Shown: positions 1 through 22,283, numbered from the stretch's first letter. The stretch: DNA of 32,000 nucleotides from Acaryochloris marina MBIC11017 (GCF_000018105.1 NC_009925.1:1170001-1202000), one strand, 5' to 3'. Numbers and translations: made by a program. The notes: generated from the letters alone by a model not told the origin.

Positions 1-715
1 AGTACTTAATTTCAGAGGTCAACGCATCAATAAAGGCCTGCAGCTGATACCCTTTCGTTTGATCCAAATAGGAGTAGGTAGTGTATTGAGCCCCCTCTAA
101 CCGTTGGGTATCAGACTTGAGTCCAGCCTTATCCGGTGCAAACTTAGTTTCCAAAATCTCCACTAGCTTGTCTTCTGGCACAGTCACCAACAAGGCAATA
201 TTGTCTTTCCCGGCACTATTGCGGATCGTTGAAAACAGTCTTGATAACATGCCAGAGAGGAAATTATCATTGGCGTCTTGGAATTGTTGATAGTCACGAA
301 CCGAGTAAACATTTTTACTGAGATCGTGAGTCCATACTTGTTGGCCGTCTGAGACTAAAAGATATTCTCTCCCCACTTCCCCCGTCTGATCCCTAAAGCT
401 AATCTTGGTTCTGAACCGATTGGGCTCTTCTGAAATGGTTTGGATTTGAGCCACTGAAACCAGATCTGCCCCAGGTGTTTTAGCCTTCAGGGTTAATTCT
501 GACTGGAGCAAATAACGATCGTTGGCCAAAAACTGTCGCATGGCCCGAACAAGCAGACCATAGTCAACGGTCTTCCCCGCCGGATGGACAAAGGGTTGGG
601 CAACGGGAGTCAAGGTCTGAGACTGAGACCAGGCGGGTTGAACCCACAATCCCACCACAAAAGCCGACAACAAACAGACCTGGCGCTGATAGCCAAAAAG
701 TTTCGTCATATCCAT
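1..715 (-). CDS. Exported hypothetical protein, N-terminal part only (ORF continues past the left window edge)
   Basis: Not in the supplied track because no stop codon lies inside the window. My translation of the minus strand from ATG 715 (alternative ATG 709) gives MDMTKLFGYQRQVCLLSAFVVGLWVQPAWSQSQTLTPVAQPFVHPAGK... and stays open to nt 1 (about 237 codons). A hydrophobic core followed by AWS/QS resembles a Sec signal peptide. No family recognised. Confidence 0.6.
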   Translation of the reverse strand, partial: MDMTKLFGYQRQVCLLSAFVVGLWVQPAWSQSQTLTPVAQPFVHPAGKTVDYGLLVRAMRQFLANDRYLLQSELTLKAKTPGADLVSVAQIQTISEEPNRFRTKISFRDQTGEVGREYLLVSDGQQVWTHDLSKNVYSVRDYQQFQDANDNFLSGMLSRLFSTIRNSAGKDNIALLVTVPEDKLVEILETKFAPDKAGLKSDTQRLEGAQYTTYSYLDQTKGYQLQAFIDALTSEIKY

Positions 716-10323: not shown

Positions 10324-10605
10324 TTAATGAACGGCCAGGTTAGAGTTCATTTGAACAAAAACCAAAGCCAATAAGATTGCGAGCGCTACCAGCAACAGTG
10401 CTCTTCTTTCTTGGACAGACAGTTTCCCACAAGGTCCATCAGGTGGTGGAGTGACAGGAGTCGTTCTGCGGCCCCCAGTTCGCGGAGGAACTGGGCGCAC
10501 AAACGGCTGCACTTCACGAGTGAGCCGATTGGCAGATGACACCGATGGAGTCCTCCCCCGATGGGGTGGCCGGATTCTAGAGGGACGACGGGCTGGACGA
10601 CTCAT
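10324..10605 (-). CDS. Small Arg/Pro-rich protein with a C-terminal TM helix (tail-anchored), coupled to the haloperoxidase gene
   Basis: 93 codons. Its ATG overlaps the haloperoxidase TGA in ATGA (10602-10605). The N-terminal ~66 residues hold about 15 Arg and 14 Pro, followed by ALLLVALAILLALVFV. It could be a chance ORF in a GC-rich patch. Confidence 0.45.
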   Translation of the reverse strand: MSRPARRPSRIRPPHRGRTPSVSSANRLTREVQPFVRPVPPRTGGRRTTPVTPPPDGPCGKLSVQERRALLLVALAILLALVFVQMNSNLAVH

Positions 10606-12482
10606 CGGCGACCAATCCTTCTAACGTCGCCATCAAAGGTAGGAACAGATAAGACGAAGGGATCGGTTGAATAGGTTAATGCCTGTTCTTCTAGAATTCC
10701 AATTGCAATTTCTTCACCCATTCGTAAACTGTCGTAGTAGTCAGTGAAATAATGAACCCCTGCCATATCCCGGCCAATGGAGATATTGGCTGCAAGTTTG
10801 TTCAGCTCACCTTCTAGAGTTAGGAAGTGGTTTGGCTTAAATGGCTTTAAATCGTCCTTAGGAACACCTTCTCCTGGTCCAGATCCAGGTAGATCAGGCG
10901 CGCGAAAAGCAATAGGTTTATCACCATTTTCCAAACGTTTAAACGCAATACTTTGACCTGATTTTGCCAGTACTGCACTAGTGTCAAAGAATGCCTTGAG
11001 AATAGTCACACATGCCCCTGCCACAGTAGCATGACCCGCTCCATATGCCGGATGCATTGGCGAGCCTTCAGGGAAAGCCATTGGTAGTAAATAATTCCCC
11101 CCTAATGCATTCAGTGTTGGCTTTAATGCATTTGAGAATAAACCAATATACTTCTTCAGAACTTCTGGAACAGTGTCTTTGTCAGCCTGTGAAAGGCCGT
11201 CAAAGCTATTAACCAGCTCAATTCTTGCTGCCAGTGCTTCTGGGCGTAAGCGAATATGATTGTTGAATTTCTGAAAACGTACTGCTTTAAGGGCTCGTGT
11301 GGCTACTTCTGTCACCAATGTGAGAATATGCGGACCACCGTAAAGAGCAAATCCCCCAGCATTCCGACGAGACTCAAAACTACTTGCAGCAGCACCAACT
11401 CCGGAAAGGTGGTCAAAACCGGGATCAAAAGGTGTTCCCATCTCTAACAGGATAATGCAGGCGTTCAAATAAGCTTCGTACAAGGCATCGTAATGAACGT
11501 AAGTTGAAAGGTCTCTGGGGGTCGATATAAAACGACGGGGTGGACGATTGGGTTGAGCAACAGAGCCCCCATTCGTGGAACCATAGGTTTCTCTTGGTGG
11601 ACGAATACCTCGCTGTACCTCAACATATTCAGACATAGACCTCATATAGTCCTTACCTGGTTCTGCAATAGGTACCCTTTGATTGATTTGTAGAGCTCCA
11701 TAGGTAATTAGCCCATCTTCTACTTTGCCACCACCTATACCATCAGCATCTCGATTGAGATCCGTATTACCTATCAGTAGGAACTGGGACAAGTAGGGAC
11801 CAGCTTCTACCCCTGGAGACGAACCTCGAAATACCGTTTGGGCATCCAGTTGCCCCGAAGTATTAACCTTACGGGGGCGGCCTGTTTGATTTGAAATATA
11901 ACTGAGGGCATTAAGACGATCTATTGATTGAGTGATAGCAGCATTAGACCTTCCATTCTCAAAATCATTGAAAGGTTGATCCCGAAGTATCGCCAATTCA
12001 TACACTTCTGCCATTTCCAAAACTAGTTCTGGATTAGGGTTCCCGTTCCCATCAAGTAAAGGCGGGGCTGGAGGCATGGTTACAGCCTGGGCATCAGGTC
12101 CTTCCAAGTCAAAGACAACTCCAGCAGTGGGAGCTTCCCATTGTCGGAAATTATTGGGGGGATCACCATCAACTTCTCTGTCAACTCGTTTAACTTCCCC
12201 ACCTTCAACTTTATATAAGGCACCATGGCGTATTAGATCAGAAGAAAATGGATCGATAAAGCCATCATCTATTGCACGACGGAACTCGACGAAATCTTTT
12301 GGATCACCTAGTAATCCAGTTTCCTCATTGTGTGGAAGTCCTTTTGTAAAGGACATGAAATATTTAGCACCAGCATATCGTTCTTCATCGCCGTTGGCCT
12401 GATGGTCAGGATGATTTCGACTTCTAGCTAGCTCTGCGGCTTCAACTCGAACTGCATAGGAATCTTGTCGACGATCTGTCAT
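10602..12482 (-). CDS. Vanadium-dependent haloperoxidase (bromoperoxidase-like, PAP2 superfamily)
   Basis: 626 aa carrying the three vanadate-site motifs: K....N..R.RPE (RFQKFNNHIRLRPEA), PMHPAYGAGHATVAGA (equivalent to P.YPSGHA) and GRDMAGVHYFTD (R...G.H). Confidence 0.85.
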   Translation of the reverse strand: MTDRRQDSYAVRVEAAELARSRNHPDHQANGDEERYAGAKYFMSFTKGLPHNEETGLLGDPKDFVEFRRAIDDGFIDPFSSDLIRHGALYKVEGGEVKRVDREVDGDPPNNFRQWEAPTAGVVFDLEGPDAQAVTMPPAPPLLDGNGNPNPELVLEMAEVYELAILRDQPFNDFENGRSNAAITQSIDRLNALSYISNQTGRPRKVNTSGQLDAQTVFRGSSPGVEAGPYLSQFLLIGNTDLNRDADGIGGGKVEDGLITYGALQINQRVPIAEPGKDYMRSMSEYVEVQRGIRPPRETYGSTNGGSVAQPNRPPRRFISTPRDLSTYVHYDALYEAYLNACIILLEMGTPFDPGFDHLSGVGAAASSFESRRNAGGFALYGGPHILTLVTEVATRALKAVRFQKFNNHIRLRPEALAARIELVNSFDGLSQADKDTVPEVLKKYIGLFSNALKPTLNALGGNYLLPMAFPEGSPMHPAYGAGHATVAGACVTILKAFFDTSAVLAKSGQSIAFKRLENGDKPIAFRAPDLPGSGPGEGVPKDDLKPFKPNHFLTLEGELNKLAANISIGRDMAGVHYFTDYYDSLRMGEEIAIGILEEQALTYSTDPFVLSVPTFDGDVRRIGRR

Positions 12483-13030
12483 AGAAATCTTCCTTTAGTG
12501 TGTGTAGAGTAGTCAGTTATGTACTTCTGGATAAGCTGTCAGGGACAACCAAAAAAATTATGCGATATTCGTAAAACATCACATTTGAGAAAGTGGTTTT
12601 AGGGTTTGCCCTTACTGATAAGCACTAGAGAATAAATATCATTGGCTAACCCTATTGATGTGATATTCAGCTATTCGGTAGCTCTTAGACCTAACTGCTT
12701 TATCGAAGAATTAAGAGAGATAGAAGCATCGCCGAATTGTGGGTTCTCTACAGTGTTGAGATTATCTTCACAATAGCGGGTGAGATAGTGTTGTTCTTAT
12801 TGTTAAGTTCCAATTTCTATCATGTCTGTGAAAAAATGTTTAACACTTGATTATGGTTAGATAAATACCAAAAACTTATGCCTTTGGTGTATTTATTGTA
12901 TGACCGTTTATTCCTTGATTTGTTTCTGCATCGTTAAACAAAAATAAGCACTGAAGGTGTTGGCAAAAAATTGCTTGCATAATGATAGCTAGGCAGATTA
13001 CGGCCTGAGCTATATTCTGGGAGTGAATTT

Positions 13031-13261
13031 GTGCCGATCGAAATAGGTCCCCTTGTTGGAGCAATTGCAAAGGTTGCAGCGCCCATAGCAGTCAACAAGC
13101 TGCAACGCACTGAGGCAGTGATTAAGCTGCTCAAGCAATTCAACCTAGATCCTGAACACCCTCCTGAAGAATTTAGTAGTGTGTATGCCTACGCTCTGGT
13201 GGAATATGGTGTGGGCAAACCTAAGCCGATGTTGGAGCTATTGCGTCAAGATATACTCTAG
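13031..13261 (+). pseudogene. 5' piece (76 codons) of the NACHT-WD40 locus, cut off by the IS element
   Basis: GTG start with GGGAG 8 nt upstream. The frame is open for 76 codons and stops at TAG 13259-13261, within the first few nt of the IS. Removing the IS plus one TA joins it in frame to the 14442 ORF (see findings). Alternatively it is an independent small upstream gene. Confidence 0.6.
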
Positions 13262-14395
13262 GCGGCTAAGATATTAACTTTCTTAAAAGACTGAAACTTG
13301 AGTGATAGTAAGGTGGTGAGTTTCGCCTTATGCTCTCCATTACACTGGTCGATGCACTGTTGAATGGCCCCTTTGAAGGCGGGAAAATCAGCATAATACT
13401 TTGAATAGAGACATTCCTTGCGTACAAAACGCCAGAGTCGCTCAATCAAATTCAAATGGCGTGAATAGGAGGGCAGATAGACCAGCTCAATATCGACGAT
13501 CTCGGCAAAGTCCGTTACAAGCTGACATTTCTGGTATCGCGCATTGTCTAAAATCACGCTGATGGGTATGACTGGGTCAAGTAGCGCCAGCTTGGCCAGT
13601 AACAGGCACATACTGTGAGAATTGATATAGGTGTGGTTGGTAACGCTGACTAGGTCTTTGGTGATAGCGTCGAGCGCGCCCAGGACATTGAAACGTTGGC
13701 GACCAGAAGGAGAAGGGATGAAGATCCGAGTGATGCACCAGACAAACCCTAGATAAGCACGGTGAACAAAGTGAGCAGCATCCACAAAAAAGACAAGACG
13801 CTCTTGGCGTTGAGCTTCCTCTAATAAGGGTTCAAGGCGAGTGTGTCGAAACTGCTCTTGCTCCTCAATTTTCTCGGGCAGACTCGACTTTCCCGGCACA
13901 TACCCCACTTTTCGATAACGACAACCGATGCGTTTGAGGAAGGCTTTGATTTGGGTGGGACTGCGTTTGATGCCTGTTAATTGCTCAATGACCGCTTGAG
14001 CTTCTGCACTGGTGCGGGGAGGATGTTGCTCAAAGTAAGCTCTCACACTATCGCTATGAGCGTTGAGTAGACTCGGTTGACCTTTATATTCAAGGGTCTT
14101 CAGCCCTTCAATCCCTCCTTGTTGATACTGACGAAGAGTTTTGGCTAAAGTGGGGCGACTAATCTGACAAAGCTGGCAGATCTGGGTATGGGAAAGACCT
14201 TGACTCTTCAAGTAGAGCACTTCCATCCGTCGCTGCACCCGTGGGTGAGGGTGATGATAGCGTTCGTAATTGAGTTGTTGGATTTCCTCTGCGGTGAAAT
14301 CAATTTTAATCATGGGAGTGGAGGATAGGTGCGGGGATACTCCCAGTGTGCCAAATCTCTCTACCACAATGTTAAGTCACAAGTCGTCCGCAGTA
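13256..14395 (-). mobile_element. IS630 / Tc1-mariner family insertion sequence (~1.13 kb), boundaries +/-5 bp
   Basis: It has a single transposase ORF with a DD35E triad, flanking TA dinucleotides (13254-55 or 13259-60, and 14394-95), and imperfect terminal inverted repeats (CTCTAGGCGGCT...TTAAC versus the reverse complement CTGCGGACGACT...TTAAC, 15 of 27 positions ungapped). Confidence 0.8.
13258..14313 (-). CDS. IS630-family DDE transposase (351 aa)
   Basis: The N-terminal half has HTH motifs (LSHTQICQLCQISRPTLAKTL). The catalytic residues are D in FFVDAAHF, D in ILDNARYQK, and E exactly 35 residues later in LPSYSRHLNLIERLW. I prefer the start at ATG 14313 (MIKIDFTAEE) over the track start at 14367. 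Confidence 0.9.
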   Translation of the reverse strand: MIKIDFTAEEIQQLNYERYHHPHPRVQRRMEVLYLKSQGLSHTQICQLCQISRPTLAKTLRQYQQGGIEGLKTLEYKGQPSLLNAHSDSVRAYFEQHPPRTSAEAQAVIEQLTGIKRSPTQIKAFLKRIGCRYRKVGYVPGKSSLPEKIEEQEQFRHTRLEPLLEEAQRQERLVFFVDAAHFVHRAYLGFVWCITRIFIPSPSGRQRFNVLGALDAITKDLVSVTNHTYINSHSMCLLLAKLALLDPVIPISVILDNARYQKCQLVTDFAEIVDIELVYLPSYSRHLNLIERLWRFVRKECLYSKYYADFPAFKGAIQQCIDQCNGEHKAKLTTLLSLKFQSFKKVNILAA

Positions 14396-14441
14396 TAAAA
14401 TTCGCCAAAGTTTTCGGAAGTCTTTTGAGAACAAAGATCCT

Positions 14442-17400
14442 TTGATCTTGCTGGCTGAAGGAGAAAAAAATATTCAAGTCCATGAATTAGAGAGTGACTT
14501 TGAATCAGAGGGAATTGATTACCAACTTGAATTTGCCAATTTCACTACAATTTTTTTGAAGGTGGCAAATCAGACTAGAACGCCTGCAGATGTCAGACGA
14601 GATCAGAATATTTCCAGTCTTCGAGATGGCTTAGATCGGGTGCAAGAAAGACTTAATCGGCTACCTACTGTGGAAGCGATGCGGGCAGAGATGGCTCGCT
14701 TGGTTTCTCAAGATGGACTTATGCTGCCGGGCAGTGACTCATCCCCCCAAGAGAGTTGTCGAGCCTATGGGTTGGCTCAGCAAATGCGGGGGTGGTTTGA
14801 GACGCTGGACTATGAGTTTGAGTCTTATGAGGCTTGGGAAACAGACTATTTTGAGTGGATTATTACCTATCGAGTGAGTCGGCGGCGATTTAATCGGGTG
14901 CTGGTGAGGGGGGTAGATGGCGAAGGGGGGGTTGCAGATATTAAGGCTTTAGCACAGTCGGTTGAAAGCCAACGTGCCGATGAAGGGTGGCTGGTCAGTA
15001 GTCGTCGCATGAGCGAGGCAGCCAGGGAAGAGGTGGCGCAAACTGAGAATGAGCATTTGGAGTGCTACACCTTTGATGAATTGCTGGATCAGGATGCGGA
15101 TTTTAGTGGCTATTTGACTTGGTTGGAGTCGGAGATTCAGCGTCGGCAGATTGATGAGCAATATGTGCCCCTGGCCTGTACAAAGGAGGAATTTAGTCCT
15201 CAAACCCAACAACGAATTGCGTTAAGTCGATATGGCGAAGCGAATGGTTGGATTGATGGCTATGTGGATGTGTGGCTGGATGACCCTGCCAAGGAACATA
15301 TTTCTGTATTGGGAGAGTTTGGGACGGGAAAGACTTGGTTTACACTGCACTATGCCTGGAAGGCTTTACAAGACTATCGCGAAGCACAGCAACGAGGAAC
15401 TGAGCGACCGCGATTACCTTTAGTGATTCCGCTGCGAGATTATGCCAAAGCGGTAAGCGTGGAGTCACTGTTTTCAGAGTTTTTCTTTCGCAAGCATGAG
15501 ATTCCGATTCCGGGCTATTCGGCTTTTGAGCAGTTGAATCGAATGGGGAAGCTGTTGCTGATCTTTGATGGCTTTGATGAGATGGCAGCGCGGGTCGATC
15601 GGCAACAGATGATCAATAACTTTTGGGAACTGGCCAAGGTAGTAGTGCCAGGGTCTAAGGCTATTCTGACCTGTCGGACAGAACATTTCCCGGAAGCCAA
15701 GGAAGGGCGGTATTTATTGGGTGCTGAGTTAAAGGCTTCAACCGCTGCCTTGACAGGGGAACCGCCTCAGTTTGAAGTGCTGGAGCTGGAAAAGTTTGAT
15801 GAGAAGCAAATTCAGCAAGTGCTGTCCTTTCGGGCAGATGAGAAATCCGTGCAGCAAATTATGGGCTATCCCCAGCTTATGGATTTGGCTCGTCGCCCAG
15901 TGATGACGGAACTGATTTTGGATGCACTGCCGGAAATTACTGCGGGTAAGCCGATTGATTTAGCGCGGGTGTATCTGTATGCCGTGCGGCGGAAGATGGA
16001 GCAGGATATTAAGGCAGAACGGACCTTTACCTCCTTGGCAGACAAGCTTTATTTTCTGTGTGAGCTGTCTTGGGAAATGATTTTGTCGGATCAGATGCGG
16101 CTAAACTACAAGCTTTTCCCAGAGCGGATTCGGAAGCTGTTTGGTCCGGTGGTGCAGGAGCAAACGGATCTGGATCATTGGCACTACGACATGATGGGGC
16201 AGTCGATGCTAATTCGGGATGCGGAGGGAAATTATAGCCCTGCCCATCGGTCACTGCTAGAGTTTTTTGTGGCCTATAAGCTGGTGGCTTTGTTGGGGGT
16301 TTTGGCTCCTGATTTTCTGGAGGTGGCAAGGGAGCAAACCCATATCGATCAAGCGTTGCCTGGGCAGGAATATGGCTGGTGGGATTATTGCCAGCGGCAA
16401 GTGGATAAGCAGGGTGCCATCCAAAAGATTGCTCCTCTACTTCGGTTTAGGTCAGGAGATCGGGAGAGTCTCCAGCCGCTACTGGTGCCTGCCCCACTGG
16501 CTAAGGCAATTTTGGATTTGGCCGTTCCGATGCTCGATTCGGCCCTAATGGTGGAACGGTTACTTCCTCAAATTCAAGCAACTCGGGGACAAACTCAGGA
16601 ACAGGCAGGGTATTGGGGTGGGAACCTAACGCAGCTTCTGGTTGATAAAAATCCTTGGGCTTTGGAAACCCATGATTTGAGTGATACCCATTTGCAAGGG
16701 GTTAATTTTGCCAATGTCAGCTTACTACAGGTGAATTTGGCCAGAGCTAGCTTGGCAGAAGCCCGTTTCAATAAAGTTCTAGCGGTCATTTATACCATTG
16801 CTGTTAGTCCCGATGGCCAGCGTTGGGCCATTGGGGAGGATAACGGCAGACTGCAGATGTGGGACGCCAGTACCGGGCGCGTGTTATGGATCCGACAAGA
16901 ACATTCTGGTGCTATTCGGTCGGTGGCCTTTAGCCCCGATGGCCAGCGGATTGTCAGTGGCAGTTATGACAACACCCTCCGACTCTGGGATGCACAGGGC
17001 AACCCCATCGGCCAACCCTGGACAGGCCATACGAATTATGTCTTGTCGGTGGCCTTTAGCCCCGATGGCCAGCGGATTGTCAGTGGCAGTTATGACAACA
17101 CCCTCCGACTCTGGGATGCACAGGGCAACCCCATCGGCCAACCCTGGACAGGCCATACGAATTATGTCTGGTCGGTGGCCTTTAGCCCCGATGGCCAGCG
17201 GATTGTCAGTGGCAGTTATGACAACACCCTCCGACTCTGGGATGCACAGGGCAACCCCATCGGCCAACCCTGGACAGGCCATACGAATTATGTCTTGTCG
17301 GTGGCCTTTAGCCCCGATGGCCAGCGGATTGTCAGTGGCAGTTATGACAACACCCTCCGACTCTGGGATGCACAGGGCAACCTCATCGGCCAACCCTGGA

Positions 17401-18005
17401 CAGGCCATACGAATTATGTCAGGTCGGTGGCCTTTAGCCCCGATGGCCAGCGGATTGTCAGTGGCAGTTATGACAACACCCTCCGACTCTGGGATGCACA
17501 GGGCAACCCCATCGGCCAACCCTGGACAGGCCATACGAATTATGTCTGGTCGGTGGCCTTTAGCCCCGATGGCCAGCGGATTGTCAGTGGCAGTGATGAC
17601 AAAACCCTCCGACTCTGGGATGCACAGGGCAACCCCATCGGCCAACCCTGGACAGGCCATACGAATTATGTCTGGTCGGTGGCCTTTAGCCCCGATGGCC
17701 AGCGGATTGTCAGTGGCAGTTCTGACAACACCCTCCGACTCTGGGATGCACAGGGGAACCCCATTGGCCAACCCTGGACAGGCCATACGAATTCTGTCAG
17801 GTCGGTGGCCTTTAGCCCCGATGGCCAGCGGATTGTCAGTGGCAGTGATGACAAAACCCTCCGACTCTGGGAGGTCGATACGGGTAAATGTTTAGCGGTC
17901 GTTCAAACGGGTTTATGTGGTGGCCTGGACTTTAGTGGTGCCCTGGGTTTAACAGCAGCCCAAGAGATGGCCTTGAAAGCAATGGGTGCCTACTGTAACG
18001 ATTAG
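14442..18005 (+). CDS. NLR-like STAND protein: Mrr-like endonuclease fold + NACHT NTPase + pentapeptide linker + 9 WD40 blades (3' part of the IS-interrupted locus)
   Basis: Walker A is GEFGTGKT (15312-15335) and Walker B is LLLIFDGFDEM (15552-15584), followed by ILTCRTEHF, typical of NACHT. Upstream, RVLVRGVDGEGGV...RADEGWLVSSRRMSEAAREE resembles the Mrr_cat fold. Pentapeptide units lie at 16670-16777 and WD40 units (SVAFSPDGQRIVSGS.D.TLRLWD) at 16783-17880. The track start is a TTG. There is no ATG for about 80 codons, and the frame is open back to 14376, inside the IS. Confidence 0.9.
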   Translation: MILLAEGEKNIQVHELESDFESEGIDYQLEFANFTTIFLKVANQTRTPADVRRDQNISSLRDGLDRVQERLNRLPTVEAMRAEMARLVSQDGLMLPGSDSSPQESCRAYGLAQQMRGWFETLDYEFESYEAWETDYFEWIITYRVSRRRFNRVLVRGVDGEGGVADIKALAQSVESQRADEGWLVSSRRMSEAAREEVAQTENEHLECYTFDELLDQDADFSGYLTWLESEIQRRQIDEQYVPLACTKEEFSPQTQQRIALSRYGEANGWIDGYVDVWLDDPAKEHISVLGEFGTGKTWFTLHYAWKALQDYREAQQRGTERPRLPLVIPLRDYAKAVSVESLFSEFFFRKHEIPIPGYSAFEQLNRMGKLLLIFDGFDEMAARVDRQQMINNFWELAKVVVPGSKAILTCRTEHFPEAKEGRYLLGAELKASTAALTGEPPQFEVLELEKFDEKQIQQVLSFRADEKSVQQIMGYPQLMDLARRPVMTELILDALPEITAGKPIDLARVYLYAVRRKMEQDIKAERTFTSLADKLYFLCELSWEMILSDQMRLNYKLFPERIRKLFGPVVQEQTDLDHWHYDMMGQSMLIRDAEGNYSPAHRSLLEFFVAYKLVALLGVLAPDFLEVAREQTHIDQALPGQEYGWWDYCQRQVDKQGAIQKIAPLLRFRSGDRESLQPLLVPAPLAKAILDLAVPMLDSALMVERLLPQIQATRGQTQEQAGYWGGNLTQLLVDKNPWALETHDLSDTHLQGVNFANVSLLQVNLARASLAEARFNKVLAVIYTIAVSPDGQRWAIGEDNGRLQMWDASTGRVLWIRQEHSGAIRSVAFSPDGQRIVSGSYDNTLRLWDAQGNPIGQPWTGHTNYVLSVAFSPDGQRIVSGSYDNTLRLWDAQGNPIGQPWTGHTNYVWSVAFSPDGQRIVSGSYDNTLRLWDAQGNPIGQPWTGHTNYVLSVAFSPDGQRIVSGSYDNTLRLWDAQGNLIGQPWTGHTNYVRSVAFSPDGQRIVSGSYDNTLRLWDAQGNPIGQPWTGHTNYVWSVAFSPDGQRIVSGSDDKTLRLWDAQGNPIGQPWTGHTNYVWSVAFSPDGQRIVSGSSDNTLRLWDAQGNPIGQPWTGHTNSVRSVAFSPDGQRIVSGSDDKTLRLWEVDTGKCLAVVQTGLCGGLDFSGALGLTAAQEMALKAMGAYCND
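16921..17872 (+). repeat. Tandem array of ~7.5 near-identical 126-bp units (one WD40 blade each)
   Basis: Units start at 16921, 17047, 17173, 17299, 17425, 17551, 17677 and 17803. Units 1 and 3 are identical over 126/126 nt, as are units 2 and 5. The others differ by 1-8 nt. Confidence 0.97.
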
Positions 18006-18063
18006 GAGTCTCTGCACCTTTGCCAATGCATATACTTCAGCTAGCAAGTCATTCTACTTGCCC

Positions 18064-18984
18064 CTAGCTCTCCACAATCTCAACGGCGGAAGTCAGTTCC
18101 TTTAATTCATCTGCCGACAAATCAGACACGATCGCATAGTGAAACTCACCATCACTCCAAAACACTCCACCCGGTCCATCTTGGATTGCCAGATAGAGCT
18201 TCTCTGGCGTGAATTGAGGCAGTTCTGGCCGTTGAGAACGAGCAATTTGGTAAAAAGAGACCTTGCCATGGTGCTCCGTATCGTACATGATCCGGACTCC
18301 CTTGGCCTTACCAAACGTGCAAACACTGCCCCCCAATAACTTAGAACTCATCTGGGAAAGAATGGGCATCGCTGAGGGCATCGGGGCCTGCGCCCTGAGT
18401 AAGGCAGCTAGCTCCATCGGCTGATTACTGGGGATGTCCACCGCTTTCGGCCCTTTTTTGAGCGACTTGTGATGATCCACCAGAATCTGTTCTACCCCTT
18501 GCCAGTTCCGGTTAACAAACGTGTCCGTCGTGGTAATCACCACATTCCTGGGCGTAGTCTGGGGCATCGTCGAGGGCAGTGTAGCCATCAGACTTTTTTG
18601 TTCAGCCAATTCCTGGCGAACTTGAGCCAATTGTTGCTGGAAGTGGACCGTTTGCAACCCTAGAGCCACCGTTGTAACGACTGCAATACCACCAAAGATT
18701 TTGGCCCAAGGGCGTTGTGAATTTGGACTCGCTTTGAAAGGCTCAGCGGATTGGGTCTGAGCCGTCTGCATCATCCGTTCCCGAGCGGAGGGTTGAGGTT
18801 GGGATTCGGCCAGGGCAAAGGGCAATAAATCCAGAGTCTCTTGCAGCCCTGCCACTTCATCCCATAGAGAAGGGTGTTCTACCGCTAACTGCTGAAACTC
18901 AGCCATCTCTTCAGAGTCGAGGTTGCCCAGCACATAGCCCGCCGCAAGTTCTTCAAATCGGTGATGGGGGGTTGGATCGACCAT
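18064..18984 (-). CDS. Membrane-spanning anti-sigma factor (RskA-like N-terminus)
   Basis: The N-terminus FEELAAGYVLGNLDSEEMAEFQQL is typical of anti-sigma N-terminal domains. It has a single TM segment (IFGGIAVVTTVALGL) and starts 4 nt after the ECF sigma gene stop. Confidence 0.7.
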   Translation of the reverse strand: MVDPTPHHRFEELAAGYVLGNLDSEEMAEFQQLAVEHPSLWDEVAGLQETLDLLPFALAESQPQPSARERMMQTAQTQSAEPFKASPNSQRPWAKIFGGIAVVTTVALGLQTVHFQQQLAQVRQELAEQKSLMATLPSTMPQTTPRNVVITTTDTFVNRNWQGVEQILVDHHKSLKKGPKAVDIPSNQPMELAALLRAQAPMPSAMPILSQMSSKLLGGSVCTFGKAKGVRIMYDTEHHGKVSFYQIARSQRPELPQFTPEKLYLAIQDGPGGVFWSDGEFHYAIVSDLSADELKELTSAVEIVES

Positions 18985-18988
18985 AAGA

Positions 18989-19603
18989 TTAAAGCTCCAT
19001 TTGCGTTCGTAGCGACTGGCGAAGTTGGATCAATCCTTTCCTTGCCCAGGTTTTGACCGTGCCCAAGGGCTTGTTCAATTGCTCGGCAATTTGAGATTGA
19101 CTATATCCCCCGAAATAACTGAGTTCCAAAACTTGACGATACTCTTCCGGCAGTTCTGTTAAAGCCTGCTGGAGGGCTTGGCGTTTCTCGGACTGACTGG
19201 CATGGTCCAAGGGCGTCGGAGAAGGATTAGGGGACAAACTTTGCTGCCACTGGGACAAAATACGACGCCGATTTCCCTTCATTCGCAGTCGATCGATGGC
19301 CCTGGACCGAGTCACTGTCGCCAAAAAGCTCGATAAGCTGCCCCGACTGGGATTGTAAGTACAGCGTTCCCACACCCCTAGAAAGATCTCTTGCATCAAG
19401 TCTTCCGCTTCAGAGGAATTGCCCAAAATTTTATAAGCCAGGGTATAAACCAAACTGGAATACTGGTCAAACAAATATTCAAGGGCGTCTAACTCCTGTC
19501 GCTTAATCGCTGCAACCAGGTCAGCGATATCAGCATATTGAGAAGAGGGAACGGGGCGGTTCTCCTCTGAGGATGGATTGGGTTGGGGAACTTTCAAAAG
19601 CAT
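18989..19603 (-). CDS. ECF-type sigma-70 family RNA polymerase sigma factor
   Basis: Region 2 is DLMQEIFLGVWER...F.SFLATVTRSRAIDRLR. Region 4 is the HTH LPEEYRQVLELSYFGGYSQSQIAEQLNKPLGTVKTWARKGL. Confidence 0.85.
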   Translation of the reverse strand: MLLKVPQPNPSSEENRPVPSSQYADIADLVAAIKRQELDALEYLFDQYSSLVYTLAYKILGNSSEAEDLMQEIFLGVWERCTYNPSRGSLSSFLATVTRSRAIDRLRMKGNRRRILSQWQQSLSPNPSPTPLDHASQSEKRQALQQALTELPEEYRQVLELSYFGGYSQSQIAEQLNKPLGTVKTWARKGLIQLRQSLRTQMEL

Positions 19604-19859
19604 CTGCCCGCAGCATCATTGCACTTATTCTATATACGAGTCAGGTCTGCGATCAGATGTGGGTATCGCCCCATCTTTTTGAACCACATCCAATGGCTCC
19701 TCTCGCTCGTATTGAAAATAAGCACAAAAAAAGGGGACAAAATTGCCCCCGAACATCACTTTATTTCTAGGAGTCAGAGTATCATGGCAACTCAATCAAA
19801 TCGATCCAGATGTCTGCAAGCCATAACCTTACAGTGAGTGATAACGCTTAAGGTTACCG

Positions 19860-21134
19860 ATGATTGCTTCCACTCCTCCCCATATTGTGATTATTGGCGC
19901 TGGTTTTGGTGGCTTACAAACGGCCGTTTCCCTGGGGGGCGCAGCAGCTCGGGTCACCTTAATCGATCGCAATAATTACCACACCTTTGTACCGCTGCTC
20001 TATCAGGTGGCAACGGCCACCTTGGAACCCGAGTGGATTGCATTGCCGATTCATAAACTGCTGCGTCGATATAAAAATGTTCAGTTTGTCCAAGGCAACG
20101 TTGAAACCGTTGACTTAACGGCGCGGCGAGTGCAAACCGCACACATTACGTTGCAGTACGACTATCTGGTGTTGGGCACGGGGAGTCAGACTCATCTGCA
20201 AGGCGTGCCCGGAGCCAAGGAACATGCGTTGCCCCTCAGAACTCTGGAGGATGCGATCGCACTCAAGCATCATCTTTTGCAGTGCATCGAGCAAGCCGCC
20301 CAAACCAAAGATCCAGACGAGCGCAGGCAGCTCTTAACCATCGCCATCGTCGGCGGTGGGGCGACGGGGGTGGAAATGGCGGGGGCTTTGGTGGAGTTGT
20401 GTCACCAATCCTGGCCCAAGGACTATCCCTGGCTCCGGGATGATCCGGTGCAGCTAATTTTGGTGCAGTCAGGCTCGGAACTCCTACCCGAATTTCCCCA
20501 TCCCTTGCGAACTTACACCTATAAAAAGCTGGCTATTTTAGGTGTAAACATTCAGGTAGAGACTAAAGTCGCATCAGTTCATGCCACTCATCTAGAACTG
20601 GATAGCGGTACCCGGATTCCCTGTGCGACGACCATTTGGACCGCTGGGGTCAAAGCTGCCCACCCTCCCACGGAAACGGCATTACCCCAAGGTCATCGAG
20701 ATAAAATCCCTGTTCTCTCCAGCCTACAGCTGCAGCAGTACCCAGAGGTCTATGCCCTGGGAGATGCCGCTCAAGTTCCCGATCAAACCTTAGCTGGCGT
20801 TGCTCCCGAAGCCTTACAGCAAGGAGTTTGTACGGCTCGCAATTTGCGTCGTCAGCTTAAGGGGCTCACTCCCCAGCCCTTTCGGTATTTCAATAAAGGT
20901 CGACTGGCCATTATTGGCTGCTTTTCTGGGGTAGGCAAGATTGGCCCCTTTCCCCTTCGAGGTTTTCTGGGGTGGTTTCTTTGGCTGGCAGTCCATTGGG
21001 TCTATTCCCCTGGCTATCGCAATCGTTTGATGATTTTGGTCACCTGGCTGCAATCCTTTGGCTCCCGAGATAAATTAGCGCGGCAATTGTTGAAGCATTC
21101 TCCGTCCAAATCTCCCGCCCAATTCAAGGTGTAA
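19860..21134 (+). CDS. Type-2 NADH dehydrogenase (NDH-2) / FAD-dependent pyridine nucleotide-disulfide oxidoreductase
   Basis: It has two dinucleotide-binding folds, IVIIGAGFGGLQTA and IAIVGGGATGVEMAG, plus the conserved YALGDAA motif. 424 aa. Confidence 0.85.
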   Translation: MIASTPPHIVIIGAGFGGLQTAVSLGGAAARVTLIDRNNYHTFVPLLYQVATATLEPEWIALPIHKLLRRYKNVQFVQGNVETVDLTARRVQTAHITLQYDYLVLGTGSQTHLQGVPGAKEHALPLRTLEDAIALKHHLLQCIEQAAQTKDPDERRQLLTIAIVGGGATGVEMAGALVELCHQSWPKDYPWLRDDPVQLILVQSGSELLPEFPHPLRTYTYKKLAILGVNIQVETKVASVHATHLELDSGTRIPCATTIWTAGVKAAHPPTETALPQGHRDKIPVLSSLQLQQYPEVYALGDAAQVPDQTLAGVAPEALQQGVCTARNLRRQLKGLTPQPFRYFNKGRLAIIGCFSGVGKIGPFPLRGFLGWFLWLAVHWVYSPGYRNRLMILVTWLQSFGSRDKLARQLLKHSPSKSPAQFKV

Positions 21135-21270
21135 TGAGTTCCAGGAGAATCGACATTGTGCTCTACGTCGAGCCGTCCTGCCGATTTCCAGACCAGCGTT
21201 TCTACTGTTTTTAGCCTTACAAACTGAACGTCATCCTAGTTTTTTGCTCTTTATCAATTCGAGGACAATC

Positions 21271-21678
21271 ATGACTACAACATCTACAAATTCCAATCTT
21301 TCCATGCAGGCATTTTCTTTATTGCTCTTGCGCCTCGTGGTTGTGGCAATTTTTCTCTATCACGGTTTTCCCAAAGCCATTAATTGGGCCATGGCCAGCG
21401 AGAAATTTGTCAGCTTTGGCTTACCCGGATTTTTGGGACCGATTACAGGCATTGTTGAAGTGATTGCCAGCATCCTTATCCTGATTGGCTTTCAAAACTT
21501 CTGGGCTAACTGGGTATTGGTGGCGATTATGGCCGGTGCGATCGCAACGGTTCAATTCCCCAAAGCCATTAGCGAAGGCGCTTTTATCGCCGGTCTAGAA
21601 CGAGATTTAATGATTTTGGCAGCCTGCGCCGTATCCGCTGCTTTTGGTCCAGGAGCATTTGCTTTGAAAAAGCGCTAG
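21271..21678 (+). CDS. DoxX family membrane protein
   Basis: LLLRLVVVAIFLYHGFPK and four TM segments. I prefer the start at ATG 21271, which follows GAGGA, over the track TTG at 21244. Confidence 0.7.
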   Translation: MTTTSTNSNLSMQAFSLLLLRLVVVAIFLYHGFPKAINWAMASEKFVSFGLPGFLGPITGIVEVIASILILIGFQNFWANWVLVAIMAGAIATVQFPKAISEGAFIAGLERDLMILAACAVSAAFGPGAFALKKR

Positions 21679-21872
21679 GGTCCTTCTTCTCTACTGCAGT
21701 CAGTTACTTTTAAGTCCTCGGCATCATCGACACTAAAGCAATATTATCTGCTGCTCATAACGGTATCCATGATCACAACTCTCGAGCAAACAATAGAATG
21801 GCACTCAATTTTGGGTACACTAACGTAATGATAGGCCCAGATAATCCTTTACTTAAACAGAAATAGAATCGT

Positions 21873-22283
21873 ATGGTCACGGTTGACGAATCCCAACAAA
21901 TTAGTGATTGCTTGCAACAAGTTTTAACCGTCAACGGTGCGCTAGCTGCTGGCATTGGCAATTGGAAAACAGGTCAATGCTTATTTAAAGATGGTCTCAA
22001 TAAGCCTGATTTCCCAACGTCTAAGATTGAAATCGCGGTCACCCATAATTCAGAGGTGATTAGGGCAAAACAGCGCGCTGCAGCGGCGCTAGAGTTTGAT
22101 GACAAAATTGACGATATTTTGATTAGTCTGACTCGCCAGTGGCATATTATGAAGCTGTTGAAAGTGGAAGGCTACTTTCTCTACATCGCTTTAGATCGAT
22201 CCAAAGCCAGTATTGCATCCGCTGGACTCAAGTTAAAACAAGCGAATCGAGAACTATCAAAAATCCTAGTCAACTATCCCTAA
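21873..22283 (+). CDS. Hypothetical protein, possibly Roadblock/LC7 (MglB-like) fold
   Basis: 136 aa. The pattern L..VL.V.GALAAGIG.W.TGQCL ... ILISLTRQWHIMKLL ... FLYIALDRSKASIASAGLKLKQ resembles Roadblock/LC7 domains. This is a weak call made by eye, and there is no adjacent small GTPase. Confidence 0.4.
   Translation: MVTVDESQQISDCLQQVLTVNGALAAGIGNWKTGQCLFKDGLNKPDFPTSKIEIAVTHNSEVIRAKQRAAAALEFDDKIDDILISLTRQWHIMKLLKVEGYFLYIALDRSKASIASAGLKLKQANRELSKILVNYP

Follow-up and report, generated by a model that had tools for sequence, protein, structure and literature searches.

The 32,000-nt stretch of DNA analysed here (the window) is part of the chromosome of Acaryochloris marina MBIC11017 and holds an NLR-like gene that ends in a tandem array of near-identical WD40 repeats. 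The array-bearing open reading frame (ORF; 14442-18005, plus strand, 1187 codons) is ABW26242.1, or UniProt B0C3Y2, with an annotated start at 14442 (TTG) in the GenBank record ABW26242.1 and at 14400 (ATT) in RefSeq. Its domains follow one another in the order NNH5, NA-iREase1, NACHT, pentapeptide and WD40, Table 1, the first of them being split by the insertion sequence ISAcma14. Membership of the NACHT clade is indicated by the profile match, by a Walker A motif of the form GxxxxGK[ST], and by a Walker B motif of the form D[GAS]hDE, the signature as defined by Kibby et al. The pentapeptide stretch has a low predicted local distance difference test score (pLDDT) in the structural model, and a sequence search of the PDB with the N-terminal 778 residues gave no match.

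The only array detected by Tandem Repeats Finder lies at 16918-17872, with a period of 126, 7.6 copies, 97% matches, no indels and a score of 1819. We chose the unit register such that one unit equals one blade (H-T-N-Y-V-x-S-V-A-F...W-T-G), which gives nine 126-bp WD40 units spanning 16776-17909, with units 1-8 starting at 16902+126k. The array thus arose by tandem amplification of one 126-bp blade-coding unit, with a unique first blade on one side and a unique tail on the other. Copies of the amplified unit are 96-99% identical at the DNA level, and the median pairwise nucleotide identity over all nine units is 0.92. That the units are WD40 repeats follows from Pfam PF00400, which matches eight stretches (E = 3.3e-109), and a hidden Markov model (HMM) of the unit places nine units at exact 42-residue spacing. 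An earlier interpretation made without database searches (the sequence-only reading) had described eight consecutive units following one divergent blade. The divergent blade is present as blade 0, but the eight units behind it are not equivalent, since only six are fully amplified and the outer two are boundary units; the last of these merges past codon 29 into the unique C-terminal tail, and a regular strand d is present there in the AlphaFold2 (AF2) models. The same reading was right that units 1 and 3, and likewise units 2 and 5, are identical at 126/126 nt, a property that depends on the register and holds in 47 of the 126 possible ones (block starts 16793-16839).

Two stop-free ORFs also run through the array, one of 365 codons in another frame of the plus strand (16798-17895) and one of 300 codons on the minus strand (16884-17786); they are by-products of a repeating unit without stops in those frames and not evidence of genes. 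The GC skew is strongly positive (0.16-0.23) in the non-repeat part of the gene (14001-17000), -0.01 in the array and near zero in the rest of the window, and the G+C content is 0.575 in the second half of the array (17001-18000) compared with 0.47-0.52 in the preceding 3 kb of the gene.

Table 1. Features of the NLR-like gene, its repeat array and the insertion sequences that cut it; positions are those of the window unless L084, the CCMEE 5410 locus, is named.
Feature	Position	Strand	Basis or remark
NLR-like gene, 5' fragment (N-terminal NNH5)	13031-13253	+	Pfam NNH5 positions 3-71/134, E = 1.9e-27
TA target-site duplication	13252-13253 and 14396-14397		flanks ISAcma14
ISAcma14, IS630-family insertion sequence, 1142 bp	13254-14395	-	NCBIfam transpos_IS630 NF033545, E = 1.7e-58; Pfam DDE_3 and HTH_23
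ISAcma14 transposase ORF	13258-14367	-	DDE_3 transposase with N-terminal helix-turn-helix (HTH)
NLR-like gene, remainder	14398-18005	+	ORF list; identical to P0121 / ABW26242.1 of MBIC11017
NNH5, C-terminal part	14445-14585	+	Pfam profile positions 88-134 only (first 48 residues), hence 5' truncation
NA-iREase1 (NACHT-associated inactive restriction-endonuclease fold)	14772-15089, residues 111-216	+	PF22722, E = 3.5e-43, full-length 1-106/106
NACHT NTPase module	15300-15824, residues 287-461	+	PF05729, 31.8 bits against a cutoff of 26.7
Walker A GEFGTGKT	15312-15335	+	read from translation
Walker B LLLIFDGFDEM with D-G-F-D-E signature	15552-15584	+	read from translation
Pentapeptide-repeat stretch, between NACHT/helical region and propeller	16674-16772, residues 745-777	+	Pfam E = 4.4e-4, exactly at cutoff
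Blade 0, divergent WD40 repeat outside the amplified set	16776-16901	+	HMM and regex dissection; conserved in orthologues
Unit 1, boundary unit	16902-17027	+	unique 17-nt head (HSGAIR against HTNYVx), remainder is consensus unit
Units 2-7, six fully amplified 126-bp units	17028-17783	+	pairwise 1-5 nt apart
Unit 8, boundary unit	17784-17909	+	amplified-unit match through codon 29, then unique strand d
C-terminal tail GLCGGLDFSG...AYCND and stop codon	17910-18005	+	one short helix, low pLDDT
Hypervariable codons per unit (start s)	codon 4 s+9..11; codon 6 s+15..17; codon 22 s+63..65; codon 24 s+69..71	+	
CCMEE 5410 orthologue	L084 1339-7551, AFEJ02000002.1		three pieces, cut by two unrelated insertion sequences
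DDE_Tnp_1 element in CCMEE 5410 orthologue	L084 1764-2852		
IS66 in CCMEE 5410 orthologue	L084 4485-5759		

The differences between the copies nearly all change four codons, which occupy the positions R1-2, R1, D-1 and D+1 of the blade. At codon 6, directly before SVAF, successive units read L/W/L/R/W/W/R, while codon 22, before the Asp, varies between Y, D and S, and codon 24 between N and K. Isolated replacements are P to L at codon 35 of unit 4 and Y to S at codon 4 of unit 8, and the synonymous changes number two, both in unit 7 (GGC>GGG at codon 33 and ATC>ATT at codon 36). All the amino-acid differences listed by the sequence-only reading recur in our unit alignment, whereas these two synonymous changes are missing from it. 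The reading had also placed the variable residues at top-face hotspots, and they do fit the rule of Wu 2012 (PMC3419727), which locates such hotspots at D-1, the residue preceding the tetrad Asp, and at R1 and R1-2 of the motif (V/L/I)-R1-R2-(V/L/I) with which strand a begins. In H-T-N-Y-V-x-S-V, R1 falls by this rule on codon 6 and R1-2 on codon 4; D-1 corresponds to codon 22, and codon 24 sits at D+1. In HET-E, positive selection has been reported at codons 7, 9, 25 and 27, which flank the conserved codons 8 and 26 on the top face (Paoletti 2007, PMC1805685); in the present unit, V5 lies between codons 4 and 6 and D23 between codons 22 and 24, so that the same four sites are concerned. When between-blade entropy is compared over the 42 positions in 34 homologues whose arrays are a clean 14x42, positions 6, 4, 22 and 24 come 1st, 2nd, 3rd and 5th, and the P/L position 35 comes 32nd. 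The placement on the top face is based on the published sequence rule, homology to the propeller structure 2YMU and Foldseek root-mean-square deviation comparisons.

Modelled alone with AF2, the eight amplified units form regular blades with high confidence (pLDDT 96.5, predicted template modelling score, pTM, 0.92) and lie within 1.4-1.6 Å of the 8-bladed propellers ODA16 and Tako8. The nine-repeat region with its flanks is modelled at pLDDT 83.7 and pTM 0.74, with lower confidence over blade 0, and lies 2.6-3.2 Å from ODA16 and Tako8 and 5.6-6.0 Å from the 7-bladed WRAP-T. Because it fits the 8-bladed templates more poorly than the eight-unit model does, the nine-repeat ring is predicted to be wider than eight blades, and the propeller thus probably has nine. 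The same comparison led us to reject, for the nine-repeat model, a ring of eight blades from which blade 0 would dangle. Experimentally, WRAP fragments form both 8- and 9-bladed rings, and the designed Tako9 consists of eight blades and one unfolded blade. The best sequence match of the array in the PDB is 2YMU, the WRAP propeller of Nostoc punctiforme (E = 9.6e-174), and with units 2-7 differing from one another at 1-5 of 126 nt and only two synonymous columns, the array falls into the Highly-Repetitive or WRAP-type class. We therefore consider it probable that a bacterial STAND NTPase related to NLRs senses its ligand through this C-terminal array, which has the form of a recently amplified, highly repetitive cyanobacterial WD40 propeller of the WRAP type.

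Scanning species-representative genomes for the protein's non-repeat part yielded at least 562 loci that encode a relative, of which the best 80 were analysed. All of these best 80 are cyanobacterial, at 58-66% identity, and 51 carry 14 C-terminal WD40 repeats, the remainder being mostly undercounts or truncated contigs. The median nucleotide identity between units of a locus ranges from 0.42 to 0.82 across the family, compared with 0.92 in MBIC11017. In some close relatives, the position of NNH5 is taken by a caspase domain, which fits the modular layout of effector, nucleotide-binding oligomerisation domain (NOD) and sensor in the framework of Kibby et al., from whom the names of the NNH and REase domains also come. 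A megablast search of plasmids with the non-repeat part of the gene returned no match, and the locus is therefore chromosomal only. Distant blastn of the array against Acaryochloris plasmids found only paralogous WD40 genes at 64-68% identity and no shared unit pool; exchange of units between paralogous loci, as known for HET-E/NWD genes, was likewise not found in these plasmids, the only place where it was sought, the closest sequences reaching at most 68% identity. No exact match to a 39-mer of the unit core was present in JGI metagenome contigs. A protein search with the WD40 part only was dominated by generic WD40 proteins and gave one useful match, a fragment from strain CCMEE 5410 (P0126).

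In CCMEE 5410, the syntenic locus has six WD40 repeats. Its internal units are homogenised to HRASVR...DDK, compared with HTNYVx...YDN in MBIC11017 and the related strain MBIC10699, such that each lineage has its own motif, RAS in the former and TNY in the MBIC strains; a synonymous ATT at codon 36 is nonetheless common to unit 7 of the MBIC strains and unit 4 of CCMEE 5410. Two further syntenic orthologues (L081, 5157-5408, and L082, 6656-6907) are free of insertion sequences, come from short-read assemblies and have only blade 0 and one hybrid first/last unit. This two-repeat state is most likely due to repeat collapse, and for this reason repeat counts from short-read assemblies appear unreliable for this family. 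That it represents a genuine state from before the amplification seems the less likely reading, given that the hybrid unit in a short-read assembly fits a collapsed repeat.

The MBIC10699 locus (L083) is colinear with window positions 10400-22005 (11,606 bases) without a single indel, differs at seven single-nucleotide polymorphisms (SNPs), and shares both the nine units and the ISAcma14 insertion, which lies at an identical site. This comparison bears on whether the nine-unit array might be an artefact of assembly, the true array having been collapsed or expanded from, for instance, 14 units. The prevalence of 14 repeats among the homologous loci would be compatible with such an error, and the apparent collapse in L081 and L082 illustrates how easily arrays of this kind are distorted. 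Yet the two MBIC genomes are independent complete assemblies produced by different technologies, a Sanger-era record for MBIC11017 and a hybrid Flye assembly of Nanopore and short reads for MBIC10699, which agree in length with no indels over 11.6 kb, and an array of ~1.1 kb fits well within single long reads. We thus regard an artefact as very improbable. The sequence-only reading had offered either an assembly artefact or an unstable copy number for the unusual count; collapse is contradicted by the colinearity of the two assemblies, whereas a variable copy number, nine against six, is what the strains display. Its expectation that strains would differ in their variable codons was also borne out, by MBIC11017 and MBIC10699.

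Three of the seven SNPs between the two MBIC strains lie inside the array (P = 0.02), all of them at columns that are already polymorphic among the units. The SNP at 17170 switches codon 6 of unit 3 between TGG and TTG, and those at 17469 and 17477 jointly switch unit 5 from YDN to DDK, which is the motif of units 6 and 8. Under new mutation, the chance of this pattern is ~4e-4 if three SNPs are counted and 5e-3 if two events are counted, and the differences look like gene conversion between units. The seven SNPs over 11.6 kb correspond to 0.06%, although the published genome-wide average nucleotide identity of the two strains is 98.0%. Alternatively, the array could stem from one blade that was amplified just once, and very recently, and has since changed by point mutations only, with the differences between the MBIC strains originating from errors of assembly or polishing. 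The presence of only two synonymous differences among the units (WRAP has none) would agree with this, as would the homogeneity of the RAS and TNY motifs within their respective lineages, a pattern that Pereira and Lupas read as independent amplification, and the hybrid Flye assembly of MBIC10699 could have assigned variants to the wrong repeats. New point mutations do not, however, readily account for three array SNPs out of three falling on polymorphic columns, two of them transferring a neighbouring motif together, and the ATT at codon 36 in both lineages is more easily understood if units were exchanged, or drawn from an older pool of polymorphisms, than by two separate amplifications. On balance, we find it unlikely that a single amplification is all that took place.

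The element that splits the gene is assigned to the IS630 family by its DDE_3 and HTH transposase, its TA duplication and its multiple near-identical copies. It is 99.8% identical to annotated copies of ISAcma14 on A. marina MBIC10699 plasmids, and among six near-full-length copies (H1-H6) the shortest matches start at window position 13252 and end at 14397. When the element and one TA are removed in silico, a single open frame of 1276 codons results, with a junction that reads like that of the intact orthologues P0002 and P0003, with which the 5' fragment is colinear. As it stands, this fragment is called as a 76-codon ORF (13031-13261) that ends at a stop codon inside the insertion sequence. 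Since ISAcma14 interrupts the gene inside NNH5, the gene in MBIC11017 is most likely an inactivated allele, and the sensor is probably non-functional in this strain. Disruption by insertion sequences was found in three of the three cultured strains examined: MBIC11017, MBIC10699 and CCMEE 5410. The deposited protein models begin 3' of the insertion sequence and present the 3' part as intact, leaving the 76-codon 5' piece as a separate small ORF. The sequence-only reading mentioned neither the split nor the prior description of the phenomenon.

To quantify the bias towards replacement changes, we took codons 4, 6, 22 and 24 as the hot codons, a choice made in advance on the basis of published work. 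The hot codons contain 6 non-synonymous variable columns per 10.3 non-synonymous sites, compared with 2 synonymous columns per 29 synonymous sites, corresponding to an omega of ~8.4 (binomial P = 0.006), where the counts are small and are of columns rather than events. In the rest of the unit, omega is ~0.17. Pooling in CCMEE 5410 gives 10 non-synonymous against 2 synonymous columns at the hot codons (P = 7e-4). The sequence-only reading had called for dN/dS per site across units, and the tests made here draw on very few sites. It is feasible that the variation is instead neutral, the four loop codons being unconstrained, or the gene a decaying pseudogene, around a core kept by purifying selection. 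The disruption of the gene in all three strains could be understood in this way, the dN/dS of the whole unit is not significantly different from 1, and across all homologues, in old and young arrays alike, variability is highest at these four sites, which are hence tolerant of change. Neutrality, though, predicts equal non-synonymous and synonymous rates at the hot codons, which neither the single-strain nor the pooled columns show, and the amplified-unit consensus of MBIC11017 differs from that of CCMEE 5410 by 8 non-synonymous and 0 synonymous changes, all in codons 2, 3, 4, 6, 22 and 24. Decay of a pseudogene, moreover, would scatter changes and frameshifts, whereas the array has no indels and a single replacement away from the hotspots. 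A purely neutral origin of the pattern therefore seems to us rather improbable, somewhat more so than a single amplification.

The comparison of MBIC11017 with CCMEE 5410 revealed an additional feature of the propeller. In flanking coding DNA, synonymous divergence (dS) is 0.19-0.31 and non-synonymous divergence (dN) 0.011-0.025, whereas dS drops to 0.055 in blade 0 and to 0.062 in the last unit and tail; for a dS of 0.2-0.3, the probability of finding no synonymous difference in the unit consensus is 0.003-0.0001. Synonymous divergence is thus about five-fold lower in the propeller tract (0-0.06) than in its flanks, and the positions of mismatches delimit the low-divergence tract to ~16740-18070, the whole propeller. 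L082 is 97-100% identical across this tract and ~82% identical elsewhere, on a contig that may be chimeric. The simplest reading of the tract would be that lineages have recently exchanged the sensor module; the low values could also suggest a constraint at the level of the nucleotides. Taking this a step further, one could speculate that the WD40 sensor segment is an exchangeable cassette within Acaryochloris, spread by recent recombination or horizontal replacement between lineages, a generalisation that we hold only tentatively and consider doubtful on the sequence comparisons at hand. If it were true, alleles inactivated by insertion sequences would keep changing their unit number and re-dealing their variants, and could act as a reservoir of repeat variants, as has been proposed for fungal NWD pseudogenes.

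In the account that we favour for the sensor array, unequal recombination and gene conversion between units would keep the scaffold homogeneous, and the same recombination would alter the copy number, which is nine in two MBIC strains, six in CCMEE 5410 and usually 14 in the family, and would reshuffle the variants already present at the four top-face codons. The excess of non-synonymous changes at the hot codons may go back to earlier diversifying selection for ligand specificity. By analogy with other NLR-like proteins, a ligand bound to the top face of the propeller would release NACHT-driven oligomerisation and the N-terminal output. The array of the inactivated MBIC11017 allele would still recombine.

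Several considerations weigh against this account. As the gene is disrupted by insertion sequences in all three cultured strains examined, selection cannot act on these alleles now. The case for positive selection rests on small counts and is thus not proven. Mis-phasing of near-identical units, whether in a Sanger assembly or in the short-read polishing of Nanopore sequence, would give the same differences between strains, and the data are also compatible with recent amplifications that started from single blades separately in each lineage, without ongoing homogenisation (Pereira and Lupas 2022). The ligand, the output and the expression of the MBIC11017 protein are all putative, and a search with PADLOC gave no recognised defence system, its matches being one to a generic repeat (HEAT-ARM_XIII) and a marginal one to mads_8 (E = 4.3e-4).

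Upstream of the NLR-like gene lies a 626-codon gene (10602-12482, minus strand) with a weak match to vanadium chloroperoxidase, and downstream an anti-sigma/extracytoplasmic function (ECF) sigma factor pair (18064-19603, minus strand). The flanking synteny is kept in MBIC10699, CCMEE 5410, L081 and L082, which argues that the NLR-like gene is an old resident of this site and not part of a mobile island.

Near-identical repeats that vary at ligand-contact codons offer a route to fast new specificities in some innate-immune receptors, and clear bacterial examples aid in tracing the prokaryotic roots of NLR immunity. The locus provides a natural series, from a presumed ancestral state of 14 repeats through a nine-unit allele in two near-clonal strains, whose copies are distinguished only by re-assorted variants at the hot codons, to a six-unit allele in another lineage, with three independent insertion-sequence hits. 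This series would lend itself to estimating how fast units convert and copy numbers change, and to testing whether lineages exchange sensor modules. It also carries a warning for annotation, since deposited models start 3' of the insertion sequence and short-read assemblies collapse the array. Both the phenomenon and this protein are already on record, through WRAP, the Highly-Repetitive WD40 proteins and the fungal NWD genes, and no new principle is involved. What is new is incremental: the three independent insertion-sequence hits in two lineages, nine against six units between lineages, the re-assortment of hot-codon variants between near-clonal strains, and the low synonymous divergence of the propeller tract.

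One of the closest known systems is WRAP. Both proteins are cyanobacterial STAND NTPases with a C-terminal array of near-identical WD40 blades, and in both the changes are almost all non-synonymous. The 14 blades of WRAP (2YMU) are 10 point mutations apart, six of them Trp to Arg at one position and none synonymous; the main variable residue in MBIC11017 is at the same R1 position with the same alternation of W and R, where the blades of 2YMU have W, R or N. Disrupted genes are common in the WRAP branch, and the MBIC11017 gene is disrupted too, although by an insertion sequence and not by a frameshift or in-frame stop. The two systems also differ in architecture, as WRAP has 14 blades of 41 residues arranged as two 7-bladed propellers, whereas MBIC11017 has nine repeats of 42 residues (and CCMEE 5410 six) behind an N-terminal part consisting of NNH5 and NA-iREase1. 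According to a summary of Dunin-Horkawicz 2014, the WRAP host gene is coupled to a partner, another STAND NTPase gene with a TIR domain; no such partner is present among the neighbours of the MBIC11017 locus. Thousands of arrays of this kind were described by Pereira and Lupas 2022, with peaks at 7 and 14 blades, a continuum between them and frequent gene disruption in the WRAP branch; B0C3Y2 is not in the supplements of that study. It does appear, as B0C3Y2_ACAM1, in the list of Highly-Repetitive WD40 Proteins of Hu et al. 2017 (Sci Rep 7:10585), who define the class by an internal repeat identity of at least 0.7 and take the few diverse sites as predicted interaction hotspots. The interruption by an insertion sequence, the nucleotide-level pattern, the strain differences and the copy-number variation described here go beyond that catalogue.

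The HET-E, HET-D and NWD genes of Podospora anserina (Paoletti 2007; Chevanne 2010), to which the sequence-only reading had likened the array, differ in that the host of the present gene is bacterial, its N-terminus carries NNH5 and NA-iREase1 instead of a HET domain, and the fungal role in allorecognition has no known counterpart for the A. marina gene. The likeness itself stands up well. Both combine a NACHT domain with highly conserved 42-residue WD40 repeats that evolve in concert and vary in number, here between nine and six, and the same four top-face codons, around the hydrophobic residue of strand a and the tetrad Asp, are hypervariable in both. Inactivated members of the fungal family also retain intact repeats (PMC1805685). 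The bacterial bNACHT proteins (Kibby et al. 2022/2023), in whose paralogues cyanobacteria are rich, include no tested member closely related to the MBIC11017 protein, and an anti-phage role of the present family is a candidate by analogy only. In layout, however, the two share an N-terminal NNH-type helical domain and a REase-fold domain, a NACHT module whose Walker B motif has the D[GAS]hDE signature, and a C-terminal repeat sensor of the 'antigen-receptor-type'.

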